IMG/VR virus record: IMGVR_UViG_3300032285_001531
Strand: one strand, 5' to 3'
DNA length: 64,000 nucleotides
DNA from: a virus
Lineage: Duplodnaviria; Caudoviricetes
Shown here: positions 12,742 through 62,732 of the stretch, piece after piece
Numbering within the stretch: position 1 is the stretch's first letter
Layout: each line of letters begins with the position of its first letter
Made by a program: the position numbers and the translations under genes
Notes under the pieces: generated by a model
What the model saw: only the letters and a program-made list of their open reading frames with translations
The model's database searches: none
Told to the model about the DNA's origin: nothing

Positions 12742-13011
12742 ATGGATACTATTGAATCAAGAACCTTTACCCTCGATCAAAAGACAAAGCTTACCCAAAT
12801 TATCAATGAAGGTATGGCAGTAATGCAAGAGATTGATGACTTGAATGGTGGCTTATCAGACACTATTAAAGCAGTAGCAGAAGAAATGGAAATCAAACCT
12901 AGCGTATTAAAGAAAGCTATTCGTGTAGCACACAAAATGGAATTAGGTAAAACTCAACAAGAGCAAGAATTACTAGAAAACATTCTCACAACTGTAGGAA
13001 AAACTCTTTAA
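12742..13011 (+). CDS. T4 DsbA-like dsDNA-binding protein
   Basis: 89 aa, helical; IKAVAEEMEIKPSVLKKAIRVAHK pattern; directly upstream of the polymerase. Confidence 0.55.
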   Translation: MDTIESRTFTLDQKTKLTQIINEGMAVMQEIDDLNGGLSDTIKAVAEEMEIKPSVLKKAIRVAHKMELGKTQQEQELLENILTTVGKTL

Positions 13012-15710
13012 TGTATGTAGACGCAATTCACGACAGGGATAATGATAAAATCCATGTCGTAGAACGTACACCTGACGGCAAACGCAGATATCAAGAATAT
13101 CCTGCGAACTATGTGTTATATTACAGTGATCCTAAAGGCAAGTATCGTAGCCTCTATGGTGATTCAGTAAGCAGATTCAGTACACGTAAGCGTGGTGAAT
13201 TTGAAAAGGAACGTAGAATACAATCAAACAAACAATTGTTTGAGAGTGATATTAATGTGGTGTTTAGATGTCTAAGTGACAACTATCTTAATGTTGATGC
13301 TCCTAAACTACATACTTGTTTCTTTGACATTGAGGTTGACTTTGATCCTGACAAAGGATTCAGTCCAACTACAGATCCATTCAATCCAGTAACAGCAATC
13401 TCATTATACTTAGATTGGCAAGACTTACTGGTCACACTATGTATTGCACCAAAGCATATGAGTGATGAAACTGCATGGGAAATAACAAAGAAGTTTGAAA
13501 ACTGTTTGTTATTTAAAACCGAAACAGAAATGTTCGAAACCTTTTTTCAACTTATTGAAGATGCAGATGTAATGACTGGTTGGAACTCAGAGGGATATGA
13601 TATACCTTACATGGTTAATCGTGTCACTAGAGTAATGAGTAAAGATGATACACGTAGATTTTGTCTATTAGGTCAACTACCTAAGCCTAGAACATATGAA
13701 CGTTTTGGTAAAGAAGAACAAACATACGACTTGATTGGTCGTATTCATATGGACTATTTGCAATTGTATAAGAAGTATAACTACGAATCACGACATAGCT
13801 ATAAACTAGATGCAATTGGTGAGATGGAAGTTGGTGAGAACAAAACTCAATACGAAGGTACCCTTGATCAATTATACAATAAAGACTGGGAAAAGTTCTT
13901 GGAGTATAACAGACAAGATACGATGTTGTTAGTTAAGATTCACAATAAATTAAAATTCTTAGACCTAGCAAATGCACTAGCACATGAAAATACTGTGCTG
14001 TTGCCAACTGTTATGGGTTCAGTTGCAATGATTGAACAGGCTATTTTTAATGAAGCACATGAACGTGGATTAGTTGTACCTGACAAAAATAGAAAGGAAC
14101 ACAATGATGAACAACAAGCAGCAGGTGCCTATGTTGCTACGCCGAAAAGAGGCATGCACGAATATGTTGGTGCCGTCGATATCAACTCGCTCTATCCCTC
14201 GGTTATTAGGGCCCTCAACATGGCGCCAGAAACAATTGTCGGTCAAGTTAGACAAACCCTAACTAATCAATACATGCGAGATAAAGGTCTACGTCTTGCA
14301 ATGGAAAAGAAAAGATATAAAGAAGGTGATGATGAAGTTACCGGTAGTGTACTATGGGAGGGATTATTTAGTGCGTTAGAGTATACCGCAGTAATGAATC
14401 AAGAACGTGGCACTATATTAACTATTGATTTTGAAGATGGTCGTAGTGAAGAACATAGTGCTGCTGAAATATGGAAGATGATATTTGATAGCAATAGACC
14501 ATGGATGCTTAGTGCTAACGGTACAATCTTTACATACGAACAAGAAGGAGTTATTCCTGGTCTATTATCACGTTGGTACAGTGATCGTAAAGACATGCAA
14601 AAGAAACTCAGAGAATCAACTACTGATGAAGATAAAGAGTACTGGGATAAACGACAATTGGTTCGTAAGATTTTACTTAACTCTGCATACGGTGCATTGT
14701 TGAATGAACATTGTCGTTTCTATGATAAGCGTATTGGTCAAAGTGTTACATTAAGTGGTCGTCAAATTGTTAAACACATGATGAGCCAAATCAATGAATG
14801 TATCGCAGGTGACTATAACCATGAAGGTGAAGCAATTGTTTATGGTGATACTGACTCATGTTATTTCTCAGCATACAGTGTATTGAAACCTGAAATAGAT
14901 AAAGGTGAAGTACAATGGGATAAAGATATGTGTATTCAATTGTATGACAATATCGCAGACCAAGCTAATGAAAGTTTTCCTGCATTTATGGAGAAAGCAT
15001 TTCATGCTCCTCGTAAGAATGGTGCAATCATTAAAGCAGGTCGTGAACTGATTGGTGATCGTAGTATCTTTATTACAAAGAAGCGTTATGCTATTAATAT
15101 CTATGACAAAGAGGGTAAGCGTAAAGATACAAACGGTAGTACTGGGCAAATTAAAGCTATGGGTTTAGATTTGAAACGTGCTGACACGCCTAAATATGTA
15201 CAAGAGTTTTTGATGAGTGTATTGCAATGTGTACTAGATGGTGGCACACGTGATACCGTAATTGATATGATTAAAACATTTAAATTGCAATTGGCTCAAC
15301 AAGAACCTTGGACTAAAGGTAGCCCTAAATCAGTGAATAAGTTAACTATGTATGGTGACAAAGAAAAGGCAGCAGGTAAAACTAACATGCCTGGTCACGT
15401 AAGAGCAGCGTTAAACTATAACTATTTGCGTAATGCTAATAGTGACAACTATAGTCAAAAGATTGTAGATGGTATGAAAATTGTAGTATGTAAACTTAAA
15501 CCTAATCCATTAGGATATACAAGTATTGCATACCCAACTGACGAACTTAGATTACCTAAATGGTTCTGTGAGTTACCATTTGACGATTATGAAATGGAAA
15601 AAACACTAGTTGATGAAAAGATTGATAACTTGTTAGGAGTTATGAATTGGGACTTAAGAATAAGCACTGACGTTAATTCTACGTTTGATGACTTCTTTTC
15701 GTTCGGGTAA
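13011..15710 (+). CDS. polB: DNA polymerase family B (T4 gp43-like)
   Basis: Exonuclease DIE, GWNSEGYD, YNRQD; polymerase DINSLYPS, KILLNSAYG, YGDTDS, KKRY. Confidence 0.97.
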   Translation: MYVDAIHDRDNDKIHVVERTPDGKRRYQEYPANYVLYYSDPKGKYRSLYGDSVSRFSTRKRGEFEKERRIQSNKQLFESDINVVFRCLSDNYLNVDAPKLHTCFFDIEVDFDPDKGFSPTTDPFNPVTAISLYLDWQDLLVTLCIAPKHMSDETAWEITKKFENCLLFKTETEMFETFFQLIEDADVMTGWNSEGYDIPYMVNRVTRVMSKDDTRRFCLLGQLPKPRTYERFGKEEQTYDLIGRIHMDYLQLYKKYNYESRHSYKLDAIGEMEVGENKTQYEGTLDQLYNKDWEKFLEYNRQDTMLLVKIHNKLKFLDLANALAHENTVLLPTVMGSVAMIEQAIFNEAHERGLVVPDKNRKEHNDEQQAAGAYVATPKRGMHEYVGAVDINSLYPSVIRALNMAPETIVGQVRQTLTNQYMRDKGLRLAMEKKRYKEGDDEVTGSVLWEGLFSALEYTAVMNQERGTILTIDFEDGRSEEHSAAEIWKMIFDSNRPWMLSANGTIFTYEQEGVIPGLLSRWYSDRKDMQKKLRESTTDEDKEYWDKRQLVRKILLNSAYGALLNEHCRFYDKRIGQSVTLSGRQIVKHMMSQINECIAGDYNHEGEAIVYGDTDSCYFSAYSVLKPEIDKGEVQWDKDMCIQLYDNIADQANESFPAFMEKAFHAPRKNGAIIKAGRELIGDRSIFITKKRYAINIYDKEGKRKDTNGSTGQIKAMGLDLKRADTPKYVQEFLMSVLQCVLDGGTRDTVIDMIKTFKLQLAQQEPWTKGSPKSVNKLTMYGDKEKAAGKTNMPGHVRAALNYNYLRNANSDNYSQKIVDGMKIVVCKLKPNPLGYTSIAYPTDELRLPKWFCELPFDDYEMEKTLVDEKIDNLLGVMNWDLRISTDVNSTFDDFFSFG

Positions 15711-15787: not shown

Positions 15788-16513
15788 ATGAAGGACAATT
15801 TACAAGATTTGATATCACATATACATGGTCTAAGTGATATTGACATTATTAAAATTATGGGTACTGATACTGAAACAAACTTTGCAGCAGTATCACAAGA
15901 TCAAAATGGTAGAATCGTTATTGAAGGTGGCTTTAAGAATACTGATGCAGAATTCATTGGCACATTCGGTCTACCAAATCTAAACAAACTCAAAACTATT
16001 TTAGGTTTTGATGACTATGACGATGGTTCAAAGATTCACACTAAGCGTGACAATGATGTTGCTAAAGCAATTCATTTTGAAAACAAGACAGGTGATTTCA
16101 TTAACGAATATCGTTTAATGTCAGAAGCTATTGTTAAAGAAAAAGTAAGTAATGTTATTTTCAAAGGTGCAACTTGGAACGTAGAATTCAATCCTACAGT
16201 AGATAACATTGGTAGATTGAAGCGTCAAGCACAAGCTAATAGCGAAGAAACTATTTTCAAACTTAAGATTGAAAACGGTGATGTAAAGATTTACTTTGGT
16301 GATCCAGCAACACATAATGGTAACTTTGTATTTCATTCTAAAGTATCTGGTACTATTAGCAATGTATTACAATTCCCAGTAAGTCTTGTTATTCAAGTAT
16401 TGAACATGGCAGGTGACAAAACAATGCGTGTTAGTGAAAAAGGTATCTTAGAAATCACTATTGACAGTGGCATTGCAACTTATCGTTACTTGATTCCTGC
16501 TCAATCAAAATGA
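15788..16513 (+). CDS. Sliding clamp (gp45/PCNA-like)
   Basis: 241 aa immediately after the polymerase; beta/alpha pattern ending YRYLIPA. Confidence 0.65.
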   Translation: MKDNLQDLISHIHGLSDIDIIKIMGTDTETNFAAVSQDQNGRIVIEGGFKNTDAEFIGTFGLPNLNKLKTILGFDDYDDGSKIHTKRDNDVAKAIHFENKTGDFINEYRLMSEAIVKEKVSNVIFKGATWNVEFNPTVDNIGRLKRQAQANSEETIFKLKIENGDVKIYFGDPATHNGNFVFHSKVSGTISNVLQFPVSLVIQVLNMAGDKTMRVSEKGILEITIDSGIATYRYLIPAQSK

Positions 16514-16899
16514 TAAAAGGCATTATGCAATCAGGTAAGTATTTGCATGTATCAGGGGGATATCCTTCTGCACCAAATATTAATTCTACGCAAAATAGAC
16601 AAACATCTAATTCACCATCTTCAGGTGACGTTCGTTATAACGCAACTGTAGCGGGATTAGAGATATATGATGGTTATAATTGGGTGTCATGGAATCCTTC
16701 ATATGCCAGTGTTGGGTTATCGCCTGAAGCAGAAGAACTACTTGACTGGGCCAAAGAAAAGCGCAACAAAGAACTTGAAGTAGAAAAACTAGCAAAAGTT
16801 AATCCAGCAGTTCATGATTTACTTGAGCAGATTAAAGAAAAGCAAGATCAACTTGAAATGGTAACAACATTACTAAAATCACCAGAGACAACATCTTAA
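16510..16899 (+). CDS. Hypothetical protein
   Basis: 129 aa, coupled to clamp and TGT-like genes. Confidence 0.7.
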   Translation: MIKGIMQSGKYLHVSGGYPSAPNINSTQNRQTSNSPSSGDVRYNATVAGLEIYDGYNWVSWNPSYASVGLSPEAEELLDWAKEKRNKELEVEKLAKVNPAVHDLLEQIKEKQDQLEMVTTLLKSPETTS

Positions 16900-18473
16900 T
16901 GGAAAAAGACGATTTAACAAGTAAACAAAATCCTGATTGGGCATTGTTTTTACCTGCACTTAGTACATTCTATATTACTGGGTTAGGTAAACAGCGTAAA
17001 GGTGAAGAGTACTTTCCACCTGAACGTATACCAAAAGGTATTCCTGACTTAGAAGGATTGAATTTTCTTAATAGTCAAAAGGCATTATTCCCATACAAGT
17101 GGGCATTGTATTCTGCAGGTCATTCTGAATTAGATCCTAAGAAACAGGGCAATAGTGAAAGCATTGTACACGAACGTGAAAAAGGTACATTCATGTTAGG
17201 TGATTCAGGTGGATTTCAAATCTTAAAAGGTCAATGGCCTGCTGATTGGAAAGATCCTAATTGTCCTAAAGCAAAAAAGAAACGTGAACAGGTACTTGCA
17301 TGGATGGAAACATACATGGACTATGGCATGGTACTTGATATACCTTCACAATCATTGACTACATATCATTTACAAGATCCGAAAACACTTAAGAAAGATG
17401 AAAAGGGTAATATTATACCTGGCTCAGGTGTTTCACTGCATGGTATTAAAACTATTGAAGATGCTATTAAAGCTACACATATCAATAACAAATATTTTAT
17501 TGAGAATCGTATTGGTAAATGTAAGTTCTTAAATGTATTACAAGGTCGTAATCATACTCAAGCTGCTGAATGGTATAATGAGATGAAAGACTATTGTGAT
17601 CCTAAAAAGTATCCTGATAATCATTTTAATGGTTGGGCTATGGGAGGTCAAACTAAGATTGACATTAGCCTTTTTCTTAAATCATTAGTTAATATCATAC
17701 ATGATGACTTGTTACAAGAAGGTGTACATGATTGGATACACTGTTTAGGCACTAGTATATTAGAATGGGCATTGATATTCAGTGATGTACAACGAGCATT
17801 ACGCAAACATGCTAATCCAAAAGTAACTATTAGTTTTGACTGTGCAAGCCCATTCTTTAGTGCTGCTAAAGGCTTAGCATACTTTAACAATAATTTTGAA
17901 CACAATAAGAAGTGGTCTTATCAAATGGAAAAGACTGCTGAGAAAAAAGCATATGCTACTGATACCCGCAAATATAGAGATGGTGTATTAGCTGATGGCA
18001 TACATGAGATATTTGCCGACAGTCCTGTGACTGCAAATATGACAATGCAAGACTTATGTTATCGTGGTCAAGGCTTTCTTGGTCAACATGGTAAAGAAAC
18101 TAAAACAAGCTGGGATACATTAAGCTATACGTTATTGCAAGGTCATAATGTATATCAACATATGGTTGCTGTGCAAGAAGCTAATCGCAAATATGATACT
18201 AATATTATCCCAAGCATGTTGATACATGAAAAACATGAGCGTATACTGTTCAGTAACGTAGTAGAAGAAATCTTTAGTTTAAAAGATAGGCAAAAAAGTT
18301 TAGATAAAATTGAAGAATATAATTGGTTTTGGAATCAGTTTAAGAGTGGTAGTCAAGGTATGAGTGGTAGAAAAACTACTAATTCAGATACTATATATGG
18401 TGAATTTTTTACAGTAGCAGACGCACCACAAGTTATTGAAGTTCCTGAAGAAGAACCGGAAGATTTTAGATAA
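16899..18473 (+). CDS. dpdA: TGT-fold transglycosylase, DpdA-like (7-deazaguanine insertion into DNA)
   Basis: GDSGGFQ, MVLDIP, NVLQG, WAMGG, IHCLG, SFDCASP; clustered with folE/queD/queE. Confidence 0.8.
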   Translation: MEKDDLTSKQNPDWALFLPALSTFYITGLGKQRKGEEYFPPERIPKGIPDLEGLNFLNSQKALFPYKWALYSAGHSELDPKKQGNSESIVHEREKGTFMLGDSGGFQILKGQWPADWKDPNCPKAKKKREQVLAWMETYMDYGMVLDIPSQSLTTYHLQDPKTLKKDEKGNIIPGSGVSLHGIKTIEDAIKATHINNKYFIENRIGKCKFLNVLQGRNHTQAAEWYNEMKDYCDPKKYPDNHFNGWAMGGQTKIDISLFLKSLVNIIHDDLLQEGVHDWIHCLGTSILEWALIFSDVQRALRKHANPKVTISFDCASPFFSAAKGLAYFNNNFEHNKKWSYQMEKTAEKKAYATDTRKYRDGVLADGIHEIFADSPVTANMTMQDLCYRGQGFLGQHGKETKTSWDTLSYTLLQGHNVYQHMVAVQEANRKYDTNIIPSMLIHEKHERILFSNVVEEIFSLKDRQKSLDKIEEYNWFWNQFKSGSQGMSGRKTTNSDTIYGEFFTVADAPQVIEVPEEEPEDFR

Positions 18474-18484
18474 CAGAGGATATT

Positions 18485-18691
18485 ATGTACGAAGGTAAAA
18501 TCAAACAGTTAGAAGAAGCACATAAAGTGTTGAACAAACAAATAGATGATATGGAACGTAATCACCCACATGTTGAGGTAGATAAACTATCTGAAATGAA
18601 GAAGCGTAAATTAATGTTACGTGATGAGATAAGTCGCCTAAATAAATTACAATGGGAACATGACCACGACAGTGTGGACTTAGGAGAATAA
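18485..18691 (+). CDS. DUF465/YdcH-like small coiled-coil protein
   Basis: LEEAHKVLNKQI...MKKRKLMLRDEI. Confidence 0.7.
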   Translation: MYEGKIKQLEEAHKVLNKQIDDMERNHPHVEVDKLSEMKKRKLMLRDEISRLNKLQWEHDHDSVDLGE

Positions 18692-18692
18692 T

Positions 18693-19145
18693 ATGGATCA
18701 AAGAGAAATGGCATTAGCTGAAACTAGAATTAGAATCAAACAAACTGCTAAACGTATGATATTTGTTACCTTTCAAAAAGAAGGTATTCATAGATATCCT
18801 GCAGCAGCAACAGATCCTAACTTATGTACAGCAGGTGAATATGACGTATCGTTTCTTGCTAATCCACATCGTCATATATTTCATTTCAATGTTAATATTG
18901 AAGTGTTTCACAATGACCGTGATATAGAATTTATTCAATTCAAGCGTTGGCTAGAAGGTCTTTATAGCAAAGACATACTTGAATTGGATTTTAAAAGCTG
19001 CGAAATGATTAGCGATGACTTATATGAACAAATCGCTAGTCGTTACCCAGATCGTGACATTGAAATCACTGTAAGCGAAGATGGTGAGAACGGTGCAACG
19101 ATACATTATAGTACTACTAAACCACATTTATCAATAACACTTTAA
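18693..19145 (+). CDS. QueD-like T-fold protein, DpdL-type (putative CDG decarboxylase)
   Basis: LANPHRHIF matches LxxxHRHxF instead of QueD CxxxHGH; SCEMI and VSEDGENGA T-fold motifs. Confidence 0.7.
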   Translation: MDQREMALAETRIRIKQTAKRMIFVTFQKEGIHRYPAAATDPNLCTAGEYDVSFLANPHRHIFHFNVNIEVFHNDRDIEFIQFKRWLEGLYSKDILELDFKSCEMISDDLYEQIASRYPDRDIEITVSEDGENGATIHYSTTKPHLSITL

Positions 19146-19154
19146 GGAAACAAA

Positions 19155-19358
19155 ATGGCAAAACTAGAAATCAAACCTAATCATAAAGTTCGTGCAATCT
19201 TTGACGATTTAGAAAAGTATCGCAACTTCTGCGTTGACTTTGGTTACAAGTTTGATGAGGCGCATTTGTATGATATGCGTGTATTCTCATACCGTCAACA
19301 TGCTAAACAATTAGCAGGTAAGAATCCAAAGGATCAATGGGCAGAGGATATGAGATAA
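19155..19358 (+). CDS. Hypothetical protein
   Basis: 67 aa, SD AAGGA. Confidence 0.7.
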   Translation: MAKLEIKPNHKVRAIFDDLEKYRNFCVDFGYKFDEAHLYDMRVFSYRQHAKQLAGKNPKDQWAEDMR

Positions 19359-19750
19359 TGGCTGTCTATACTATATCAACTAAAGAAAAGAAAAGCGTTG
19401 AAGAACGTGAGATTTGGGTTAAAGATGATTTAACTATCATTCGTATTAATGGCTTTCGTTGGGGTTCATATACAATTGAATTAGATGACGATGAAGAACT
19501 AGATATAGACCCAAACAATCCAGATGGCATAGACATGAACTGTTGCGGTTACGATGCAGAACTAGTTAGTATGGATGATGGTTGGTACGGTGATGTAGAG
19601 TATCCAGAAAGCATGAGTGATGAAGAACGTGAACGTATGGATGAAATATGGGACGAAGATTATTATGAAGGTTGGGAAGGTGAAGGTTGGATGCAAACTG
19701 ACACTGAAGCAATGTTCTATGGTCCATTAGAAATAACTAAGGAAGATTAA
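19358..19750 (+). CDS. Acidic hypothetical protein (paralog of 55497-56036)
   Basis: VYTISTKEKKSV...FRWGS; start at TAATG 19358. Confidence 0.7.
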   Translation: MAVYTISTKEKKSVEEREIWVKDDLTIIRINGFRWGSYTIELDDDEELDIDPNNPDGIDMNCCGYDAELVSMDDGWYGDVEYPESMSDEERERMDEIWDEDYYEGWEGEGWMQTDTEAMFYGPLEITKED

Positions 19751-20943
19751 TGCAAACATTATATTACATGGGTTTAGAACCCTATAAGGCAAGATATACT
19801 CTACAGTTACAAGAGTGGAATCGTGCTGTATTTGAACGTAGGGGAATAAACTATGTAATAGTTCCTGGTGAAACACTAAGTAATGACAAAGCCATTGTAA
19901 CGGGTCAAGTGTTAGATGCACATGGTCGCAGTTACTTTGGCATGAGTCAAATGATGAATCTAGTTAAATTAATGAAAGCAGGAGAAATTAATCATGCAGA
20001 TGTTATATACTTTGAGGACATGTTTCAACCCGGCATTGAGAGCCTACCTTATATTATTGATCAAATCCCTCATACTATGCGTCCTCGTATTGCTGTTCGT
20101 TGCCTTGCACAAACTATTGACCCCGATGATTTCGTTCATGTATGGGGTATGCAAGACTGGATGGGTCACTATGAAAAGATGGTTGATTCGTTCGTAGATA
20201 TTACACTTGCTACTAATGAAGAAATGGTAGCACATATGAAAATAGCAGGATGGAAGTCAAAGATTTATAATATCAGTGGCTTAGCATTCGGTAAAGATGA
20301 AGTACGTAATAGAATAGAAGGTGAACTAAAGCCATTCAATGAACGAACATATCGTGTTGGTTTTGCCGCACGTTGGGATCAGGAGAAACAACCTGACTTC
20401 TATATGGACTTGATTGAAGAATACAATCGTATACAAAGTATGGCATATAATGATTTTCCTAAAGTAGAGTTTTGCGTATTCAGTGGTAGTAAATTAAAAA
20501 GTAATAATAGTAGTTACATGGAACGCACAAAGAAATTGCAACAAGAAGGTAAGCTTGTTATATATGAGGATTTAGAAAAGAATGATTACTATAATTTGCT
20601 TAATGATACTCGTGTCTTGTTTAATTGTGCCCTACAAGATTGGGTTTCCAACACAGTCAGTGAAGCAGATACTCTTGGCTGTAACGTTTTATACCCTGCT
20701 TATAGGTCTTTCCCTGAAACTTTTGCTAATGACAGTGACAGGCTTTACATTCCTTGGTCAATGAATGATGCACTTGACAAGTTATTAAAACTATTAAAGC
20801 ATCCACATAAAGATATCGGTAAAATCAGTGACTATAATGATAAGACAATTGACAGAATTTGTGATATAATAACTGGTCAGGGCGAAAGATACTTGCGTAT
20901 GGATACTGACTATCGTAAGCATGTTAGCGAGACAAAATATTAA
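19750..20943 (+). CDS. GT-B glycosyltransferase (GT4-like)
   Basis: FAARWDQEKQPD, FNCALQDWVSNTVSEA, YPAYRSFPE. Confidence 0.8.
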   Translation: MQTLYYMGLEPYKARYTLQLQEWNRAVFERRGINYVIVPGETLSNDKAIVTGQVLDAHGRSYFGMSQMMNLVKLMKAGEINHADVIYFEDMFQPGIESLPYIIDQIPHTMRPRIAVRCLAQTIDPDDFVHVWGMQDWMGHYEKMVDSFVDITLATNEEMVAHMKIAGWKSKIYNISGLAFGKDEVRNRIEGELKPFNERTYRVGFAARWDQEKQPDFYMDLIEEYNRIQSMAYNDFPKVEFCVFSGSKLKSNNSSYMERTKKLQQEGKLVIYEDLEKNDYYNLLNDTRVLFNCALQDWVSNTVSEADTLGCNVLYPAYRSFPETFANDSDRLYIPWSMNDALDKLLKLLKHPHKDIGKISDYNDKTIDRICDIITGQGERYLRMDTDYRKHVSETKY

Positions 20944-21161
20944 TGACTGCTATATTTACATATCTTTTTATAGGTGGAGTGTTAGGATTTCTAATAGGAT
21001 TGAACAAGCACCAAACACCTACTGGTCTTATTAACTATAATATTTTAAAAAACGAACGAGATGAATCTGAGAGAAAACTTTTGTATTACAAAAAGGTAAT
21101 CAAAGACCTAGTAGAAGATAATCGTAAGCTAGTAAAAGAATTAGAAGAACATAATAAATGA
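20943..21161 (+). CDS. Small membrane-anchored coiled-coil protein
   Basis: Hydrophobic N-terminus. Confidence 0.6.
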   Translation: MTAIFTYLFIGGVLGFLIGLNKHQTPTGLINYNILKNERDESERKLLYYKKVIKDLVEDNRKLVKELEEHNK

Positions 21162-22141
21162 AAACAGTTGTAATTACCGGTTCAAATGGTTTTATAGGAA
21201 GTCATACTGCAAAAGTGTTTCGCAAAGCAGGTTACTATGTTGTGGGTATAGATAACAAATATACTATACCTGCAAATAAAGATTACTGTAATGAAGTTAG
21301 AATAGGTGATTATGACACTGTAGGCGCCTTTGCTATTCAGTATCATCAAGCTAATGCCATTGTGCATTGTGCTGCCAATTCACTTGTGGGACCAAGTATA
21401 AGTAATCCCTACAGTTATTATAACAATAATGTAGCAAAATTAAATCAATTTTTAAACACTTTACATGACATATATAATTGGCACGGTAGTATTATTTTTT
21501 CAAGTAGTGCTGCAGTGTATGGAACTAACTCTGATGAATCAATAAAAGAGAATGCCAACAAAGATCCAATAAGCCCATATGGTCGTAGTAAGTTAATGGG
21601 CGAACACATAATTAACGATTATTGTATTGCACATGGATATAAAGCAATTGCATTGCGTTATTTCAATGCAACTGGATGTGACATTGATGGTGAATTAGGT
21701 TGTATTAAGGATGATACTCATTTAGTTCCACGTGTTTCTACTGCAGCCTTGAATGAAAAATCATTAATCATTAATGGTAACGATTTCAACACTCCTGACG
21801 GTACATGCATACGTGATTACTTGCATGTAACTGACATTGCTAATGCACATTTAGCTGCTGTAGAGTTAAGTATGGGTTACAGTGAAGGTGAATTTGAAGT
21901 ATTCAATTTGGGTACTGGCACAGGATATAGTAACTTAGAAATTGCCAATGCATTCGTAGAGCATAATAAGATACCTTTAACTTGGGCATTTGGTCCTAGA
22001 CAAATAGGTGATCCTGATAAGCTAGTTGCAGATCCAATTAATTTTATACATGAAACTGGCTGGATGCCAGAACATAGTGATTTAGAAACAATAGTAACCA
22101 CAACTTTTGACTTCATGAAAAAAATGTATTACAATAATTGA
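21158..22141 (+). CDS. galE: UDP-glucose 4-epimerase (GalE-like)
   Basis: ITGSNGFIG, FSSSAAVYG, YGRSK, LRYFNA, DGTCIRDYLHV. Confidence 0.9.
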   Translation: MKTVVITGSNGFIGSHTAKVFRKAGYYVVGIDNKYTIPANKDYCNEVRIGDYDTVGAFAIQYHQANAIVHCAANSLVGPSISNPYSYYNNNVAKLNQFLNTLHDIYNWHGSIIFSSSAAVYGTNSDESIKENANKDPISPYGRSKLMGEHIINDYCIAHGYKAIALRYFNATGCDIDGELGCIKDDTHLVPRVSTAALNEKSLIINGNDFNTPDGTCIRDYLHVTDIANAHLAAVELSMGYSEGEFEVFNLGTGTGYSNLEIANAFVEHNKIPLTWAFGPRQIGDPDKLVADPINFIHETGWMPEHSDLETIVTTTFDFMKKMYYNN

Positions 22142-22210
22142 AATAAATAGTTATGTAACACAAAGGTTACAAATAGTCAACAAAAAACCATCACAACGGA
22201 GGGTTATCAA

Positions 22211-22894
22211 ATGAGTTTTAATAAGACAAAAACAGATCCTATTTTAGGACAACAAGTACACGAACATTTAGTAAAAATGGGAGTTGAAACTCCAATGAAT
22301 GCTAATAATCGGGACCGTAAAGAAAAGATTGAATTAATTGAGAGCTATTTCGAAGGCATAATGATGGCTTTGGGTTTAGACTTACAAGATGATAGTCTTA
22401 ACGAAACACCTAAGCGTGTTGCTAAGATGTATGTTAACGAAATCTTTTGGGGATTAGATTATGATGCATTCCCTAAATGTACTACAGTAGACAACAAGAT
22501 GAATTACAACGAAATGGTAGTAGAACGCAATGTATCAGTGCAAAGTAACTGTGAACATCACTTTGTTATCATTGACGGTCTTGCTACAGTTGCGTATGTG
22601 CCTAATCAAAAAGTATTAGGACTAAGCAAAATCAATCGTATTGTAGAATACTTTAGTAAGCGTCCACAGATACAAGAACGACTAACAGAGCAAATCTTTC
22701 ACACACTATGCTATATCCTTGAAACAGACGATGTTGCAGTTCTTATAAATGCTAGACATTATTGTGTGCGTAGCAGGGGAGTCGAAGATGCCGGAAGTTC
22801 TACCGTTACTAGTAGATTAGGCGGTGGTTTCAAAACTGATCCTGCTGCAAGAGCAGAATTTATGAGGATGGTTTCTTTAAGCGACCTAAATTAA
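22211..22894 (+). CDS. folE: GTP cyclohydrolase I
   Basis: ETPKRVAKMY, SNCEHH, GLSKINRIV, QIQERLT, HYCVRSRG. Confidence 0.96.
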   Translation: MSFNKTKTDPILGQQVHEHLVKMGVETPMNANNRDRKEKIELIESYFEGIMMALGLDLQDDSLNETPKRVAKMYVNEIFWGLDYDAFPKCTTVDNKMNYNEMVVERNVSVQSNCEHHFVIIDGLATVAYVPNQKVLGLSKINRIVEYFSKRPQIQERLTEQIFHTLCYILETDDVAVLINARHYCVRSRGVEDAGSSTVTSRLGGGFKTDPAARAEFMRMVSLSDLN

Positions 22895-22952
22895 GAGAAT
22901 TTGTTGCAGGATCATCAGGAAATAGATGTTGTAAAAACTAGAGGATTAGAAG

Positions 22953-23426
22953 ATGATATTCAATCACATTAAGAAACTTAAAGCAGAAGGTAAGAAGATA
23001 GGTATAACATTTTCTACCTTCGACTTGTTACATGCAGGTCATATTGCTATGCTAAGTGAAGCAAAGAATCATTGTGATTATCTTATTGCTGGCTTACAAA
23101 CTGATCCAACAATAGATAGACCTGATACTAAGAATAAACCTGTGCAAAGTATTGTAGAACGACAAATTCAATTGTCAGCATGTCGTTATGTTGATGAAGT
23201 GGTTGTGTATCAAACTGAACAAGACTTAATTGACTTATTATTGATTCTACCAATAGATGTTAGAATACTAGGTGTAGAGTATGAGAACAAAGACTTTACC
23301 GGTAAGAAAGAATGCTGGGATCGTGACATTGAATTAGTATTCAATGGGCGTGATCATAGTTTCAGTTCTAGTAGTCTGCGTAAACGTGTTGCTAATGCAC
23401 AAATAGTTAATAAATTAAACAAATAA
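22953..23426 (+). CDS. Cytidylyltransferase (TagD/RfaE-like)
   Basis: TFSTFDLLHAGH, LIAGLQTD, SSSSLR. Confidence 0.88.
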   Translation: MIFNHIKKLKAEGKKIGITFSTFDLLHAGHIAMLSEAKNHCDYLIAGLQTDPTIDRPDTKNKPVQSIVERQIQLSACRYVDEVVVYQTEQDLIDLLLILPIDVRILGVEYENKDFTGKKECWDRDIELVFNGRDHSFSSSSLRKRVANAQIVNKLNK

Positions 23427-23430
23427 AAAT

Positions 23431-23473
23431 AGCGGTCTAGGCAATCACCCCGCTCTACAAATTCTGCTGCCTA
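23431..23473 (+). ncRNA. Candidate H-type pseudoknot, preQ1-I riboswitch-like, upstream of queD
   Basis: AGCGG 23431-35/CCGCT 23450-54; loop TAGGCA 23438-43 pairs with TGCCTA 23468-73. Confidence 0.45.
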
Positions 23474-23494
23474 TGATAATGTAGGAAAATAGTT

Positions 23495-24025
23495 ATGACA
23501 ATCGTTAGTAAAGACAATGTTTGGGGAATGCCGACTAAACAATACAAATACACTAGTACCAAAGAATACCACGATGCATTTCCATGTGCATATCGTCAAT
23601 GGAGAGCAGACAGCCATTGTAACTTGATTCATGGTTATAGTTTTAGTATGAAGTTTTACTTTGGTACTGACAGTTTAGATGTACGTAATTGGGCTGCTGA
23701 CTATGGTGGATTAAAAGAACTAAAAGGTATACTGGAAGATCAGTTTGACCATACGTTACTTGTAGCACAAGATGATCCAGAGTTAGAAACATTCAAATTA
23801 TTACAAGAAAAGAAACTTGCTAAATTGACAATTCTTCCAAAATTAGGATGTGAAGGTTTAGCCGATATGCTTTACAAGTACGTGAATGGAGTGTATATTT
23901 CTGATATGTGGGGAGAGGGTGAAGCTGAACGTCTTTGGTGTTATCGTGTAGAAGTACGTGAAACTCAAAGTAACATGGCTTTTAGAGAAGGTCATAGACA
24001 TTGGAATGAGGACTTGTTTAAATGA
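23495..24025 (+). CDS. queD: 6-carboxy-tetrahydropterin synthase
   Basis: CNLIHGYS, DQFDHTLL, CEGLA, VEVRET. Confidence 0.88.
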   Translation: MTIVSKDNVWGMPTKQYKYTSTKEYHDAFPCAYRQWRADSHCNLIHGYSFSMKFYFGTDSLDVRNWAADYGGLKELKGILEDQFDHTLLVAQDDPELETFKLLQEKKLAKLTILPKLGCEGLADMLYKYVNGVYISDMWGEGEAERLWCYRVEVRETQSNMAFREGHRHWNEDLFK

Positions 24026-24579
24026 AAACATTAGTTAGTTATGCCGAGGTTGAACTACATTGTTTAACTATAGCAAAACAAATGAGCAAAGACAAATGGA
24101 TACCTGATTATATTGTAGGTATAACACGTGGTGGACTTTTACCTGCTGTCTTGCTAAGTAACTGGTTTGACTGTAAAATGTACACATTAGATGTAAGACT
24201 GCGTGATGGTAAAGGTGATGGATGCGAAAGCAATCTATGGATGCCCGAAGATGCAATCGGGTATGTACCAGAAGATCAACGTGGTGAAAGTGGCACACGA
24301 GTAGATCCGGCACATCGTAAGAATATATTAATCGTTGATGATATTAATGATACTGGTGCTACTATCAATTGGATTATGCAAGATTGGAAGAAAAGTTGTT
24401 TACCTAACAATAGTGCATGGGATACAGTATGGGGAAACAATGTAAAAGTTGCTACACTATTTGATCGTGGACTATCAAGCAATAGTGAAATGCCGCATCA
24501 GTATACAGGTGTATTAGTTACACAAGACAATGATCCGGGTTGGGTTGTATTTCCCTGGGAAAGCTGGTGTGGAGAATAA
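24022..24579 (+). CDS. Type I phosphoribosyltransferase (purine PRT-like)
   Basis: VGITRGG, ILIVDDINDTGAT PRPP loop, WVVFPWE. Confidence 0.9.
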   Translation: MKTLVSYAEVELHCLTIAKQMSKDKWIPDYIVGITRGGLLPAVLLSNWFDCKMYTLDVRLRDGKGDGCESNLWMPEDAIGYVPEDQRGESGTRVDPAHRKNILIVDDINDTGATINWIMQDWKKSCLPNNSAWDTVWGNNVKVATLFDRGLSSNSEMPHQYTGVLVTQDNDPGWVVFPWESWCGE

Positions 24580-24590
24580 TAGGAGAATAT

Positions 24591-24794
24591 ATGAAAGAAC
24601 TTACAATTATAGAAAAAACTAATTTTAAATTAAAACTAAAACAATGGAAATGTGAAACACCTAACGAATTAAATTCTATTGAATTTGTACAAGAACAAAT
24701 CAATGATGAGGGTGATGTAACTACAACGTCAACATATAACTTTTTTATGACTGATGCTGAACTTAAAAAATTGGCTGAGAGTTTATCACAATGA
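24591..24794 (+). CDS. Hypothetical protein
   Basis: AGGAG SD before ATG 24591. Confidence 0.7.
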   Translation: MKELTIIEKTNFKLKLKQWKCETPNELNSIEFVQEQINDEGDVTTTSTYNFFMTDAELKKLAESLSQ

Positions 24795-25660
24795 GTAAAT
24801 TAAAGATTGCTGAGTTGTTCTACAGCATTCAAGGGGAAGGAAGGTACATGGGTGTACCTTCTGTCTTTTTAAGAACATTCGGATGTAACTTCAAATGTCA
24901 AGGATTTGGTATGCCTAAGGGTGAACTAAGTCATGAGGCAGATGAAGTCGCACGTACACACAATGAAATAGAAACTTTCTTCAACTACAAAGACTTACCT
25001 TTAGTTAAGACAGGATGTGATAGTTATGCTAGCTGGCATCCAAGTTTCAAAGACTTAAGTCCTATGCTTACAACTGATGCTATTGTAGAACGTATTATGG
25101 AAATGCTTCCATATAATGAATGGCGTGAAGAACATCTAGTTATTACTGGTGGTGAACCACTACTAGGATGGCAGAAGTCATATATTGATTTACTTCAACA
25201 TCCTAAGATGCAGTCATTAAAAGAAATTACATTTGAAACAAATGGCACTCAACCGTTATCGCAAGAGTTACAAGACTATTTGCGTTGGAAGCCTGATAGT
25301 TGGACACATCATAAAGGTTATTTTGCATTAACATTTAGTGTAAGTCCTAAACTAACTAGCAGTGGTGAAAAACACGAAGATGCAATCAAGCCTGAAATCG
25401 TAGTTGACTATGAACGTTTCGGTTATACATATCTTAAGTTTGTTGTTGCTACAGAAGAAGATGCACAAGAGGCATTAGAAGTGACTAAGATGTATAGAGA
25501 AGCAGGATTCGTTGGACCTGTATACTTAATGCCAGTGGGTGGTGTTGAGAGTGTATATTCATTAAACAATCGTAGAGTAGCAGACCTTGCTATGAAACAT
25601 GGTTTACGTTATAGTGATAGACTACAAGTGCCTCTCTTTAAGAATGAGTGGGGAACATGA
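24791..25660 (+). CDS. queE: 7-carboxy-7-deazaguanine synthase (radical SAM)
   Basis: FYSIQGEG, FLRTFGCNFKC..CDS, ITGGEP, ETNG, SVSPK, RLQV. Confidence 0.93.
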   Translation: MSKLKIAELFYSIQGEGRYMGVPSVFLRTFGCNFKCQGFGMPKGELSHEADEVARTHNEIETFFNYKDLPLVKTGCDSYASWHPSFKDLSPMLTTDAIVERIMEMLPYNEWREEHLVITGGEPLLGWQKSYIDLLQHPKMQSLKEITFETNGTQPLSQELQDYLRWKPDSWTHHKGYFALTFSVSPKLTSSGEKHEDAIKPEIVVDYERFGYTYLKFVVATEEDAQEALEVTKMYREAGFVGPVYLMPVGGVESVYSLNNRRVADLAMKHGLRYSDRLQVPLFKNEWGT

Positions 25661-25887
25661 TGGGATATTCTTATGAAGGACAAAAGTATGTAGTCTATGA
25701 TTACATACTAATTTGGAATTTACAATTTTGTTGGTTCCCAAAAAAATGTCATAGGTCAAATAAATTAATTTGGCTTAAACATGCATATAAAGGTATTCAT
25801 AAATTAACTGGTCCTGGTTATAACATTGACGTAGAAGTATGGCATCATCCATACGAACATATGAGATTTATTTTAGAGGCAGTATGA
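25657..25887 (+). CDS. Hypothetical protein
   Basis: ATGA overlaps at both ends; FCWFPKKC motif is similar to FAWLP in 54430-54663. Confidence 0.6.
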   Translation: MMGYSYEGQKYVVYDYILIWNLQFCWFPKKCHRSNKLIWLKHAYKGIHKLTGPGYNIDVEVWHHPYEHMRFILEAV

Positions 25888-27233
25888 GAACGTATGATAA
25901 ACGTATAGCATTTTTAGTTAGTTATCAAACATTGATTCCTCATGGGGGCATAGGACAATTCACTAAAAGTTTTATTGAGTTGATGGATAGCCACAATATC
26001 AAAGTAGATATCATAACTGACAAGAAACCACAAGACAGTGAATTCATTAAATCAATCAATACTAATATAATCTATCCAGATGAGTCATTACCATATACCG
26101 ATCATAGTGCTATCTTTATGTACGGTGATAGTTATTGCTTTGAACGTATGGCAAACTTTCGTAATTCAATTATCAAAGCATTGACAAATAATCTATATGA
26201 TGCAATGATATGTAATACTTATGAAACTGTACAAGTTGCAAGTACTATGGGTCTAGAAGATGTTATTCAAATCATTGCCTATACACACTTAGAAAGTCAA
26301 ATATTCAAAGATACTAAGAATCCTTTCTTACACAGTGTTAATGACATGATGCGTAAGCAATTAGAACTTAATGGATTATATGTGGGTACTCAAAGTAAAT
26401 TTAATCAATTGAATATTAGTGACACTGCATATCATCTTCCTATTCCAATCACAGAACAAGAGTTGTTAAAAGAATATCATAAACCTAGAGAAGGTGTATT
26501 GTTTATCGGTCGGTGGGAAGAAGGAAAGAATCCTGAACTATACTTAGATTTAATTGAGCAAACTAAATTACCTGCAAAAGTAATGACTAGTGCAAATGGT
26601 GCTAAAAAGTTTGAAGAACGACTGAAGAAGATCGGTGTCAAGTATGATATTCGTGTAGGTATCTTAGGCCCAGAGAAAGTTGATTTTATCACTGGTAGTC
26701 GTGTTGCATTTAATCCTAGCACAGTTGAAAGCTATGGTATGGCTTTTCATGAACAGCATATTCAATTGCCTACGTTTGTATTAGAGAATCAGCGTTGGAC
26801 AAAAAACTTTAATAGTAGTTACTTTTTGACAACTAATAAGAAAAACATGGCTAAGGATGTATTAGACATGTATAATCATAGTACTGATGCAAGTTTATGG
26901 TATGAGACTGGATCTTTGAAACATGCACAACAAATTGAAGCAGATATATTTCATAAATGGAATGAGTGTTTTAACAGTTTCACCCCAAAGCAAAGTAATA
27001 GCAATACAGCAAAAATATTGACTTATGATACCGTTGTTTATGCTGATTATATTAAAGATTTGGATAGAAATATGGTGTGTATTGATGACATACGAAGTGT
27101 GTTGACAAACAAGAAGAAGTATGCTACTATCTTGTATACTGATAACCACACAATATTATCAAAAGATAAAGATTATGTGCCAGTTATTAAAGATGAAACA
27201 GATTCATTCACTGATTTATTTGAATTTATATAA
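25884..27233 (+). CDS. GT-B glycosyltransferase (GT4-like)
   Basis: HGGIGQF, FIGRWEEGKNPE, PSTVESYGMAFHE; start moved to ATG 25884. Confidence 0.82.
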   Translation: MRTYDKRIAFLVSYQTLIPHGGIGQFTKSFIELMDSHNIKVDIITDKKPQDSEFIKSINTNIIYPDESLPYTDHSAIFMYGDSYCFERMANFRNSIIKALTNNLYDAMICNTYETVQVASTMGLEDVIQIIAYTHLESQIFKDTKNPFLHSVNDMMRKQLELNGLYVGTQSKFNQLNISDTAYHLPIPITEQELLKEYHKPREGVLFIGRWEEGKNPELYLDLIEQTKLPAKVMTSANGAKKFEERLKKIGVKYDIRVGILGPEKVDFITGSRVAFNPSTVESYGMAFHEQHIQLPTFVLENQRWTKNFNSSYFLTTNKKNMAKDVLDMYNHSTDASLWYETGSLKHAQQIEADIFHKWNECFNSFTPKQSNSNTAKILTYDTVVYADYIKDLDRNMVCIDDIRSVLTNKKKYATILYTDNHTILSKDKDYVPVIKDETDSFTDLFEFI

Positions 27234-27421
27234 TGATAACTATACCACATGACAAAATAAATGTAGTACATCATTATTTGAATACAGAAGTATCAAAGCG
27301 CCAATATTATTTTCACTCTGAGTTTGGAAATCATGATTGGAAAATTGAACGAAGTAATACTGATTGGGTATTACATGCCGATGTTAAACATGAAACATAT
27401 ATTGCATTAAGGTTTTTATGA
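27233..27421 (+). CDS. Small hypothetical (possible member of the short paralog family)
   Basis: C-terminus KHETYIALRFL. Confidence 0.6.
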   Translation: MITIPHDKINVVHHYLNTEVSKRQYYFHSEFGNHDWKIERSNTDWVLHADVKHETYIALRFL

Positions 27422-28476
27422 CATTTAATCAAAACGTAAAACGTATCGGCTTTGCTTGTAAATGGGCAGAGATCAACAAGAAGGGCGAAATTGCTAGTAC
27501 TGAAGGCTTAAACACCGGCGGTACTACTATGGCATGGGCAAATCGTCAAAGCCGTCGTGTTGCTGAAGAAAAAGTAATTGAGGTTGCTAAACGCAACATT
27601 ATGAACACTCATGCACTAATCAAAAAGGTAGCTACATTACCTAACGAATTGCGTATGTTACGTCTTACTAGTGACATGCTAAGTTTCTACACACATCCTG
27701 ATTGGCACGACTTCTGGCAATCTACTGATGTACAAAATAGTCTAGCACATTGGTTTGCACCATTAGGTGAGACTGCACGTGCTAATGATGTTCGTATTAG
27801 TTTTCACCCTGATCAATTTGTAGTTTTAGCAAGTGATCGTCCTGAGGTAGTAAATAAATCTATAGAGGAGTTTGAATATCATGTCTCAATGGCCAATTGG
27901 ATGGGCTTCGGCAAACAATTTCAAGACTGTAAAATCAACGTACACATATCGGGTAGAGCCGGTACCGAAGGTCTACGGAGTGCCTACAAACGACTCAGCC
28001 CCGAAGCAAGAAATTGCATCACAATCGAAAATGAAGAAATAAGTTATGGACTCAACGACTGTCTTACTATCTCTGACATCTGTCCTATTGTTATGGATAT
28101 TCATCACCATTGGATTAAAAGTAATGGTGAATACATCGACCCTAAAGATCCTCGGATCAAAATGGTGGTGGAAAGTTGGCGAGGTGTTAGGCCTGTCATG
28201 CATTTCAGCACTAGCCGTGAAGATATTCTTGTTGGTCACTCTCCCGATATTAGGCCTGATCTTGAAACTCTTCTCCTAGCAGGACATAAAAAACAATTTT
28301 TACGTGCGCACAGCGACTACTATTGGAACAACGAGGTTAACCAATGGGCATTGTCATTCAATGACCAATTCGATATAATGTGCGAGAGTAAAGCTAAGAA
28401 TCTAGCTAGTTTTAAATTATACGAAGGAAGTAAAAATGTTAAAGAAACTAAAGAACTTATTCTCGAAGAAGCCTAA
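27418..28476 (+). CDS. uvsE: UV damage endonuclease UvsE/UvdE
   Basis: RIGFAC, LRLTSD, SFHPDQF, NVHISG, TIENEE, DIHHH, HSDY, MCESKAK. Confidence 0.92.
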   Translation: MTFNQNVKRIGFACKWAEINKKGEIASTEGLNTGGTTMAWANRQSRRVAEEKVIEVAKRNIMNTHALIKKVATLPNELRMLRLTSDMLSFYTHPDWHDFWQSTDVQNSLAHWFAPLGETARANDVRISFHPDQFVVLASDRPEVVNKSIEEFEYHVSMANWMGFGKQFQDCKINVHISGRAGTEGLRSAYKRLSPEARNCITIENEEISYGLNDCLTISDICPIVMDIHHHWIKSNGEYIDPKDPRIKMVVESWRGVRPVMHFSTSREDILVGHSPDIRPDLETLLLAGHKKQFLRAHSDYYWNNEVNQWALSFNDQFDIMCESKAKNLASFKLYEGSKNVKETKELILEEA

Positions 28477-36139: not shown

Positions 36140-36170
36140 AAAGCCCGTTAATTCGGGCTTTACCTTTTTG
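36140..36170 (+). terminator. Rho-independent terminator
   Basis: AAAGCCCG-TTAATT-CGGGCTTT followed by T-rich sequence. Confidence 0.65.
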
Positions 36171-36206
36171 TTTACAAAGTTATTAATTTTAGTATATAAT
36201 ATCAGT

Positions 36207-36959: not shown

Positions 36960-36961
36960 TA

Positions 36962-60766: not shown

Positions 60767-60802
60767 CTATCTACCTTATAGTTTGTAATAGTATTTAGAC
60801 AC

Positions 60803-60841
60803 AAAAAAATAGCAGTCTAACTAGATATAATTAGACCGCTA
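60803..60841 (-). terminator. Rho-independent terminator (minus strand)
   Basis: TAGC(A/C)GTCTAA/TTAGAC stem with a 7-nt U-tract; TAAATA at 60792-97 re-initiates for the cyclase. Confidence 0.55.
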
Positions 60842-60864
60842 CCAAAAACTACCGTACTACTTTA

Positions 60865-61008: not shown

Positions 61009-61017
61009 TCTTATAGT

Positions 61018-61611: not shown

Positions 61612-61612
61612 C

Positions 61613-62722: not shown

Positions 62723-62732
62723 CTCCTTCCCC

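Follow-up and report, generated by a model that had tools for sequence, protein, structure and literature searches.

Eight 7-deazaguanine derivatives are known in phage DNA, none of them with a sugar, and the study describing them mentions neither sugars nor glycosyltransferases (PMC10516641). In phage phiST, complete replacement by plain 7-deazaguanine (dDG) has been measured, and the protein DpdL, recognized by the signature L-x3-HRH-x-F, has been proposed to decarboxylate 7-carboxy-7-deazaguanine (CDG) to 7-deazaguanine (Hutinet 2023, PMC10516641). Complete replacement by plain dDG has also been measured in Vibrio phage VP1. Here, a locus with homologues of these genes is analysed in the IMG/VR virus record IMGVR_UViG_3300032285_001531, a 64,000-nucleotide stretch of DNA from a virus of the Caudoviricetes (the window, always meaning the whole stretch). 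In this locus the putative deazaguanine genes are interleaved with genes for sugar metabolism, above all with a predicted glycosyltransferase gene, termed GT_a, which in related phages is strictly nested in DpdL-type modules. Literature searches found no report of glycosylated deazaguanine in DNA (a preliminary description of the window, made from its letters, likewise knew of no glycosylated 7-deazaguanine), and no paper was found that describes a link between DpdL and GT_a.

The locus resembles the DpdL/DpdA3 system of phiST and phiSM (PMC10516641) in encoding FolE, QueD, QueE and a DpdL with the L-x3-HRH-x-F motif, in having no QueC in the module, and in a transglycosylase of the tRNA-guanine transglycosylase (TGT) superfamily placed among replication genes. 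It differs in that this transglycosylase belongs to another, hitherto undescribed subfamily (524 aa, no Pfam match, common to phages PA5oct and Phosso) and in the addition of one or two glycosyltransferases of the family 4 (GT4) type, a GalE and a nucleotidyltransferase; the phiST genome is devoid of the latter genes and has MazG-like and kinase-like genes. Judged by gene families and their arrangement, the chances are about even that the locus represents a 7-deazaguanine DNA-modification module of the DpdL type into which a glycosylation branch is integrated.

The ten genes named in the preliminary description (dpdA, dpdL, GT_a, galE, folE, a cytidylyltransferase, queD, a phosphoribosyltransferase (PRT), queE and a second glycosyltransferase, GT_b) are all present in the order given and in one orientation (+), as are all genes between 13 and 58 kb of the window; dpdA, however, lies at 16899-18473, upstream of the position 18693 at which the module had been said to start. 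Most of the ten are stop/start-coupled, and the overlapping stops and starts noted previously are borne out at 19750, 20943, 21158/21161, 24022/24025, 24791/24794 and 27233. Family searches confirm six of the ten (GalE, FolE, the HxGH nucleotidyltransferase, QueD, PRT and QueE) and left the calls of DpdL, the DpdA-like protein, GT_a and GT_b in doubt. Among the confirmed genes are FolE, GTP cyclohydrolase I (22211..22894; Pfam 3.9e-61), QueD, of the CPH4 synthase family (23495..24025; Pfam PTPS 9.3e-15), and QueE, a radical-SAM CDG synthase (24791..25660; phrog_2076 3.6e-53, with NCBIfam models matched below cut-off). Scanning of the open reading frames (ORFs) of the module and the window recovered DpdA, FolE, QueD and QueE together with DpdL, and no QueC.

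DpdL (18693..19145; 150 aa), a QueD-like T-fold metalloprotein and proposed CDG decarboxylase, has no Pfam match but belongs to phrog_17812 and carries the sequence FLANPHRHIF, i.e. L-x3-HRH-x-F in place of the C-x3-H-G-H of QueD. It matches gp040 of phiST (tblastn 34% identity, E 6e-9; hidden Markov model (HMM) comparison E 2e-39) and, by tblastn, 28 other phage records. An alignment of 15 diverse homologues shows H33, H59, H61 and E104 to be invariant and R60 nearly so; three histidines and a glutamate are kept, but the catalytic cysteine of QueD is not.

The DpdA-like protein (16899..18473) has more than 7500 database homologues, none of them named, and no match, by sequence or profile, in Pfam (including TGT PF01702 and DpdA PF23859), NCBIfam, PHROG or the PDB. 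Its language-model features in the Atlas point to TGT/DpdA (0.93 and 0.88), and the motifs LGDSGGFQ (D102) and TFDCASP (D314) are invariant among 21 homologues; we take these to be the Asp102 and Asp280 motifs of the Zymomonas mobilis TGT, DSGG(F/Y)Q and (M/T)FDC. An AlphaFold 2 model (pLDDT 72, pTM 0.79) finds, in a Foldseek search of the PDB, the DNA preQ0 insertase DpdA (7ui4) as its best match (E 1.8e-5), followed by 49 others that are nearly all TGT, QTRT1 or ArcTGT (about 45 of them TGT or QTRT1), with modest TM-scores of 0.34-0.50 against DpdA and TGT structures. On the strength of predicted fold and motifs we accept the protein as a member of the TGT superfamily that lies, by sequence, outside the described DpdA subfamilies. 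In PA5oct a homologue (31% identity) adjoins QueE, and a second, unrelated DpdA family occupies the same role in the modules of phages ACP17, BUDD and BUCT-ZZ01.

GT_a (19750..20943) is recognized in Pfam only by Glyco_trans_1_2, at 16.7 bits (cut-off 25; E 0.007). However, the Glycos_transf_1 model picks up 25 of 40 diverse homologues at E values up to 0.01 (best 4.5e-10), and the AlphaFold 2 model (pLDDT 94.5) retrieves BshA, MshA, glycogen synthase and PimA with Foldseek (E 1e-13 to 1e-9, TM-scores of 0.6-0.7), as well as SenB and LmbT, these best matches being retaining enzymes of the GT4/GT5 families; sequence and profile searches of the PDB gave weak matches only, for GT_a as for GT_b. 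By its predicted structure GT_a is a retaining GT4-type enzyme with the two Rossmann domains of the GT-B fold. Among 40 sequences the donor-binding residues R208 and K213 are invariant and E305 nearly so; P215 is invariant too. The N-terminal, acceptor-binding domain is strongly conserved as well, which is unusual among GT4 enzymes and suggests that GT_a has a single, specific acceptor. The family (798 representatives at E up to 0.001) is, by its sequence distribution, essentially viral: 185,579 species genomes of cellular organisms yielded 8 matches, all on contigs of metagenome-assembled genomes and 59-71% identical, which are probably binned phage DNA.

The distribution of GT_a was followed in two sets of loci. 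The close relatives comprise 80 IMG/VR loci with the same DpdA at 65-83% identity and form one clade; the distant set comprises 79 new loci from a scan centred on a 32%-identical GT_a member, annotated by HMM. A locus search with a single protein had given 4 loci, and an alignment-based search was used instead. The gene order among the close relatives is PolB, p241, p129, DpdA, (p68), DpdL, p67, GT_a, FolE, nucleotidyltransferase, QueD, QueE, (p79), GT_b and GalE, with the nucleotidyltransferase and GalE shifting position in some loci yet remaining within the block. In the GT_a-seeded distant loci, DpdL stands beside GT_a in 75 of 79, the other four being cut by the end of the contig. GalE is the next gene after GT_a in 48 of them, and PRT, the nucleotidyltransferase and GT_b are found in 20, 18 and 13, respectively; the DpdA is of the window's family in 53 and of the other family in 9, so that the pairing of DpdL and GT_a is seen with two unrelated DpdA families.

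The pair also occurs in the cultured phages PA5oct, ACP17, BUCT-ZZ01 and Phosso, in Xanthomonas phages BUDD and X1 and in Burkholderia phage BCSR5, in a variety of layouts. ACP17 has QueD-FolE-x-DpdA-GT_a-DpdL-QueE, and Synechococcus phage BUCT-ZZ01 has QueE-PRT-x-QueD-FolE-GT_b-DpdA-DpdL-GT_a; PA5oct and ten near-identical Pseudomonas jumbo phages share PolB-p241-DpdA-GT_a-DpdL-SDR-PRT-QueE, in which GT_a was identified by hhalign (99.6%). A profile search of the whole records of seven DpdL phages (RHph_I1_18, phiST, Bakedbeans, Ahp1, D479, MA9V-3 and Roos) detected no GT_a, while three positive controls were found. In a tree of DpdL, phages with and without GT_a are interleaved, Ahp1, for instance, falling together with PA5oct (support 100/98). 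The well-supported branches require a minimum of two changes and the best tree, which is short and weakly resolved, six. The idea that GT_a phages possess a distinct DpdL subfamily was rejected because of this interleaving, which also argues that the same DpdL works with or without GT_a. On these sequence comparisons GT_a is strictly nested in DpdL-type modules and has been repeatedly gained or lost; it therefore looks like an optional tailoring step, an add-on downstream of DpdL. GT_b and the nucleotidyltransferase show the same nesting behaviour in fewer lineages.

Several DpdL genes of phages that have no GT_a stand in other company. In Vibrio phage Bakedbeans (L094:9245-10396) and Chryseobacterium phage MA9V-3 (L185:9431-10312), DpdL makes up the C-terminal portion of longer proteins (383 and 293 aa, respectively), and Pfam has no match for what precedes it in Bakedbeans. 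DpdL neighbours a macro-domain (Appr-1-p processing) protein in Rhizobium phage RHph_I1_18 (L091:10408-11232), a MazG-like pyrophosphatase and a kinase-like ATPase in phiST (L092), and a dNMP kinase in Vibrio phage D479 (L184), which hints at nucleotide-level steps in those systems.

The recurrence of the arrangement in the 80 and 79 related loci and in several cultured lineages is far from chance, and comparative sequence data strongly support a functional connection of the glycosylation genes with the deazaguanine module. The preliminary description had proposed that the glycosyltransferases may act on a deazapurine and had suggested a survey of gene neighbourhoods; there, GT_a does not assort independently of dpdA, DpdL being adjacent in 75 of 79 loci with the four misses at contig ends. 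The genomic half of that proposal holds, since GT_a, GT_b, GalE and the nucleotidyltransferase all stay in the module, and its chemical half (the accepting atom, DNA or free base as substrate, and the kind of sugar) is still pure inference. The alternative offered at the time, glycosylation of the virion or the host surface, is weakened for GT_a, because this gene occurs exclusively in 7-deazaguanine modules, and there beside DpdL, with two DpdA families and in at least six cultured lineages.

In a broader form of that alternative, which we regard as unlikely if worth serious attention, the glycosyltransferases act on an unrelated acceptor (such as the cell envelope, a different base of the DNA, or a protein of phage or host) and travel with the que and dpd genes in a shared early/middle operon of replication genes. 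This would sit well with the further glycosyltransferase and sugar genes of this phage, with the envelope being the usual site of action of GT4 enzymes, with a GalE and a nucleotidyltransferase that could feed any pathway, and with the variation of sugar genes in the module, some relatives carrying DegT and kinase-nucleotidyltransferase fusion genes. On the other hand, GT_a was never found without an adjacent DpdL across phage families of differing genome organization and two DpdA families; where it is absent from the module it is absent from the whole genome, and it is almost absent from cellular genomes. Co-transcription alone does not account for so strict a pairing after many rearrangements. 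Furthermore, the T4-type late promoter motif TATAAATA does not occur between 13 and 35 kb and is rarer in the window than expected by chance; this is weak evidence only.

How might the sugar reach the DNA? By family function, FolE, QueD and QueE would convert GTP to CDG, which DpdL, if the proposal of Hutinet 2023 holds, would turn into 7-deazaguanine. The DpdA-like enzyme, encoded behind the polymerase and clamp-like genes, would then act on the replicated phage DNA and put the deazaguanine base in the place of guanine, and GT_a would add a hexose to this base, most likely once the base is in DNA, using a UDP-galactose-type donor that GalE would provide by family function. In the clade of the window GT_b may attach a further sugar, for the activation of which the HxGH nucleotidyltransferase would be responsible, and PRT would most likely salvage the released guanine to GMP and thereby refeed FolE. 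That the sugar ends up on the deazaguanine of DNA we judge, from gene content and context, to be an evenly balanced proposition. The full picture, in which guanine is replaced by a glycosylated 7-deazaguanine with a hexose (probably galactose-type) from GT_a, made into a disaccharide by GT_b in the clade of the window, through N- or C-glycosylating GT4 enzymes and a new DpdA subfamily that are widespread in freshwater jumbo phages as well as in PA5oct, ACP17 and BUCT-ZZ01, is a tentative one, and our confidence in it falls a little short of even.

The obvious parallel is provided by the T-even phages, which glucosylate 5-hydroxymethylcytosine by means of alpha- and beta-glucosyltransferases. 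Both systems place genes for GT-B enzymes among those of DNA metabolism, and in both, on the reading proposed here, an optional layer is added to a base that is already non-canonical; presence among related phages is patchy and the sugar toolkit varies. They differ in the acceptor: in the present case the sugar would go to a purine analogue that lacks a hydroxymethyl group, no hydroxymethylase having been found. They differ, too, in their enzymes: GT_a and GT_b are GT4-like, not GT63 or GT72, and resemble the T4 enzymes in role and fold class only. To our knowledge, every known sugar-bearing DNA base is a hydroxymethylpyrimidine. Such an acceptor was considered and rejected: the scanned ORFs of the window (nearly all those of at least 195 aa) include no thymidylate-synthase-family gene, as the preliminary description had maintained for a hydroxymethylpyrimidine synthase, and the complete jumbo relatives have one ThyA-type thymidylate synthase each, with the dUMP-specific Asn.

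Several points weigh against a sugar on the DNA base. Gene adjacency speaks for a functional link only and says nothing of the identity of the acceptor. The T4 alpha- and beta-glucosyltransferases are not among the 50 best PDB matches of GT_a, whose nearest structural neighbours (BshA, MshA, SenB and LmbT) act on small-molecule acceptors. Plain 7-deazaguanine has no hydroxyl group, retaining GT4 enzymes normally form O-glycosides, and the minimal module includes no conserved oxygenase. The other sugar genes of this phage (36168-39009) mean that GalE and the nucleotidyltransferase could serve several pathways. Finally, the decarboxylase role of DpdL is unproven, and its heterologous expression failed; in E. 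coli no product was obtained with DpdL and DpdA of ACP17, which itself carries GT_a (PMC10516641).

Minimal modules (L089, L096, L100 and ACP17) contain neither a hydroxylase nor a conserved oxygenase that could make a hydroxyl acceptor, and this would restrict the bond to an N- or C-glycosidic one or to an acyl-glycoside (ester) on CDG. The specific suggestions of the preliminary description, a sugar on the CDG carboxyl or a CDP-activated polyol, are neither strengthened nor weakened by these modules. Eight of the related loci have, between the genes for DpdA and DpdL, one for a small 2OG-Fe(II) oxygenase (L076:11553-12107), which could make a hydroxyl acceptor in those loci.

The only precedent that we found for GT4-type glycosylation of a 7-deazaguanine-type base, by analogy, is HuiG of huimycin biosynthesis, a protein with a Glyco_transf_4 domain that moves GlcNAc from UDP-GlcNAc to a nitrogen of a 7-deazaguanine-type free base (bioRxiv 10.64898/2026.04.15.718813). 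As proposed for the window, a GT4-type enzyme meets an acceptor base made by FolE, QueD, QueE and, in that case, QueC. The HuiG cluster differs in being an actinomycete secondary-metabolite cluster without DpdA, and its acceptor is an O-methylated preQ0 as free base rather than DNA; moreover, HuiG is likened to GT_a by description only. The example raises the question of whether GT_a, too, glycosylates a free base (CDG or 7-deazaguanine). The product would then be a soluble, nucleoside-like metabolite resembling huimycin, or else a modified base for insertion by DpdA. The small-molecule GT4 enzymes nearest to GT_a in fold would agree with this, as would the position of DpdL, a base-level enzyme according to Hutinet 2023, as the most constant neighbour of GT_a. 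GT_a is also acidic (pI 5.5), though so are nearly all proteins of this phage, and pI was rejected as a pointer to DNA binding for that reason. Yet DpdA is part of every module, pointing to DNA as the destination, and a soluble secondary metabolite has no obvious use to a lytic phage. In TGT structures the 2-amino face of the base is buried and a free N9 is required, so that a pre-glycosylated base should fit a TGT-type enzyme poorly. Overall, we consider a free-base acceptor quite unlikely.

The T-fold of DpdL permits still another reading, in which DpdL turns the product of FolE into a pterin that is glycosylated by GT_a, and QueD, QueE and DpdA separately put CDG into DNA. Pteridine glycosides of cyanobacteria are made by GT4 enzymes of the BGluT type, and Synechococcus PCC 7942 is the host of one GT_a phage; DpdL is PTPS/QueD-like, with three His and a Glu kept and the catalytic Cys of QueD gone, its decarboxylase activity has never been demonstrated, and an SDR-family gene, GalE, follows GT_a. 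That gene is, however, a true GalE equivalog and not a sepiapterin reductase, and no BGluT-like protein is found among the top reviewed-protein fold matches of GT_a. There is no known use of pterin glycosides by phages. In addition, phiST has DpdL, measured 7-deazaguanine in its DNA and no other candidate for a decarboxylase, and the DNA of Vibrio phage VP1, considered here for its base composition only, is fully 7-deazaguanine. We consider a pterin branch very improbable.

Returning to glycosylation of the DNA base, the sugar-supply genes offer some guidance as to what might be transferred. GalE (21158..22141) is a UDP-glucose 4-epimerase that scores 278.1 bits against TIGR01179 (equivalog cut-off 262.3), and four GalE genes that follow GT_a in distant loci (275-348 bits) likewise all exceed the cut-off; by homology it probably supplies GT_a with a UDP-galactose-type donor. 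The HxGH nucleotidyltransferase (22953..23426; cytidylyl/adenylyl-transferase family, Pfam CTP_transf_like 2.9e-12) is matched in NCBIfam by rfaE domain II (80 bits) and TagD (60 bits), both under cut-off, and its best PDB relatives are the ethanolamine-phosphate (ECT) and glycerol-3-phosphate (TagD) cytidylyltransferases; its homologies make the activation of a second sugar phosphate or a polyol phosphate a probable role. GT_b (25839..27233, probable start 25884), a predicted second GT4-type glycosyltransferase, is assigned by Atlas features to GT4 clusters (0.98; the Atlas record begins at residue 16) and by the motifs GRWEEGK and E-x7-E, and hhalign relates it to the GT_a family (84%) over the donor-binding half only. 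GT_b is also found within the module of BUCT-ZZ01-type loci, which carry the other DpdA family.

Directly upstream of GT_a lies p137 (19337..19750), a very acidic protein (pI 4.05) without family matches. Its slot is taken in L025:12432-13208 and about 38 related loci by an unrelated fusion of 250-280 aa (259 aa in many relatives), directly upstream of GT_a, that joins an HxGH nucleotidyltransferase to a C-terminal cupin; the latter is the C-terminal part of the mannose-1-phosphate guanylyltransferase/mannose-6-phosphate isomerase type, and the fusion beside GT_a hints at a mannose- or heptose-like second sugar. Other variable extras of related modules are short DegT-like aminotransferases (L134:7944-8528; 6 loci), a P-loop kinase fused to a nucleotidyltransferase (L057:12376-13167; 12 loci) and a Bax1-I membrane protein (L048:16422-17108; 8 loci). 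A second sugar cassette of the window (36168-39009) consists of a DUF4422 glycosyltransferase-like gene, a DegT/DnrJ aminotransferase (1.1e-66) and an epimerase/dehydratase, which matches its model from about position 83 on and may be N-terminally truncated or mis-started.

Two of the deazapurine genes deserve comment. QueD has C-x3-H-G-Y (CNLIHGY) where the canonical motif is C-x3-H-G-H, and the variant prevails in related loci (66 HGY vs 6 HGH among 73 QueD genes); its Tyr presumably replaces the zinc-binding His. PRT (24022..24579; type I purine phosphoribosyltransferase, Pfam Pribosyltran 1.5e-12) resembles the purine phosphoribosyltransferases 1vdm and 4z1o in the PDB, and its presence in only 2 of the 80 nearest loci, alongside the GT_a-seeded loci noted above, BUCT-ZZ01 and PA5oct, indicates that it is an accessory member of the module. 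A type I PRT between queD and queE and a start from CDG without QueC are reminiscent of the tubercidin and toyocamycin pathways, as is a GMP reductase in 13 related loci. This GuaC equivalog (558 bits, cut-off 397), encoded between GT_a and FolE in L148:9374-10483 and 12 other loci that all have PRT as well, would be consistent either with guanine being salvaged or disposed of after its release, or with a nucleotide-level route like that of toyocamycin. Unlike those pathways, however, the window has no GMP reductase, adenylosuccinate enzymes or UbiD decarboxylase, and PRT is dispensable in most close relatives. A nucleotide-level pathway of this type was rejected for the window, where PRT is its only representative; base exchange with guanine salvage is favoured because DpdA is always present.

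The module begins directly downstream of replisome genes. A family B DNA polymerase (13011..15710; Pfam DNA_pol_B 1.4e-43), which precedes the module in nearly all related loci, is followed by the conserved p241 (15788..16513; phrog_12062, with HMM matches on annotated genes in L086 and L090), homologues of which are labelled 'DNA polymerase III sliding clamp beta' in Phosso and, from virion mass spectrometry, 'structural protein' in PA5oct. Small proteins are interspersed: the coiled-coil-like p68 between DpdA and DpdL (18485..18691), kept in 56 loci of this clade according to tblastn and HMM searches; the basic p67, constantly between DpdL and GT_a in this clade (19155..19358; 68 of the 95 loci L001-L095 and 33 of the 79 GT_a-seeded loci); p72, with an N-terminal hydrophobic helix in its ORF sequence and no family match (20943..21161); and p79, conserved between QueE and GT_b (25648..25887; 15 loci). 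An 11.7-kb region has no megablast match among GenBank phages, and a scan of 16.5-27.5 kb at E up to 1 gave no match to an RNA family in Rfam; a preQ1-riboswitch-like pseudoknot upstream of queD (23431-23494), if there is one, would have to be of a novel kind.

Further features of the window include a ferritin-like protein and a fatty-acid desaturase near its start (2373-2816 and 3381-4085), a UvdE UV-damage endonuclease downstream of GT_b with only a 62-aa ORF between (27418-28476), and a phage-encoded ClpX-like ATPase with zinc finger and ClpP protease (47646-48842 and 51059-51646). At 58712-63512 the genes switch to the - strand in a bacterial-looking block, where the GC skew also flips sign; it encodes a 684-aa protein in which a CHASE2 sensor is joined to an adenylate/guanylate cyclase, two proteins with curlin repeats and one with a FecR domain.

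Among cultured phages, PA5oct provides the closest link to experiment. It has been noted to have a deazaguanine system (PMC7824862), and its DNA resists restriction at sites that contain G and is a target of sensors of hypermodified DNA (PMC12191111); the published work names QueE and PTPS only, not the transglycosylase subfamily or a glycosyltransferase (PMC12191111, PMC7824862). PA5oct shares with the window the DpdA subfamily (31% identity) and the series PolB-(clamp-like)-DpdA-GT_a-DpdL-(SDR-like)-PRT-QueE. It differs in that no GT_b or HxGH nucleotidyltransferase was detected within about 10 kb of DpdA and in that its SDR-like gene encodes only 172 aa.

If glycosylation of the DNA base proves true, it would be the first case, in any DNA, of a purine analogue that bears a sugar, and a new class of DNA hypermodification; as the acceptor offers no hydroxyl, the transfer would call for glycosyltransferase chemistry of an unusual kind. 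Such a base could explain why DpdL and DpdA from ACP17 yielded no product when expressed in E. coli, as well as the chemically undefined G-modification of the therapy-relevant PA5oct. The question is directly testable, since the at least six cultured lineages with the module and the seven DpdL phages without GT_a form a natural comparison set, and it has implications for the range of restriction enzymes, DNA glycosylases and END-type nucleases able to sense such phages. The heavily modified DNA of these very abundant freshwater phages may, moreover, be under-recovered in sequencing.

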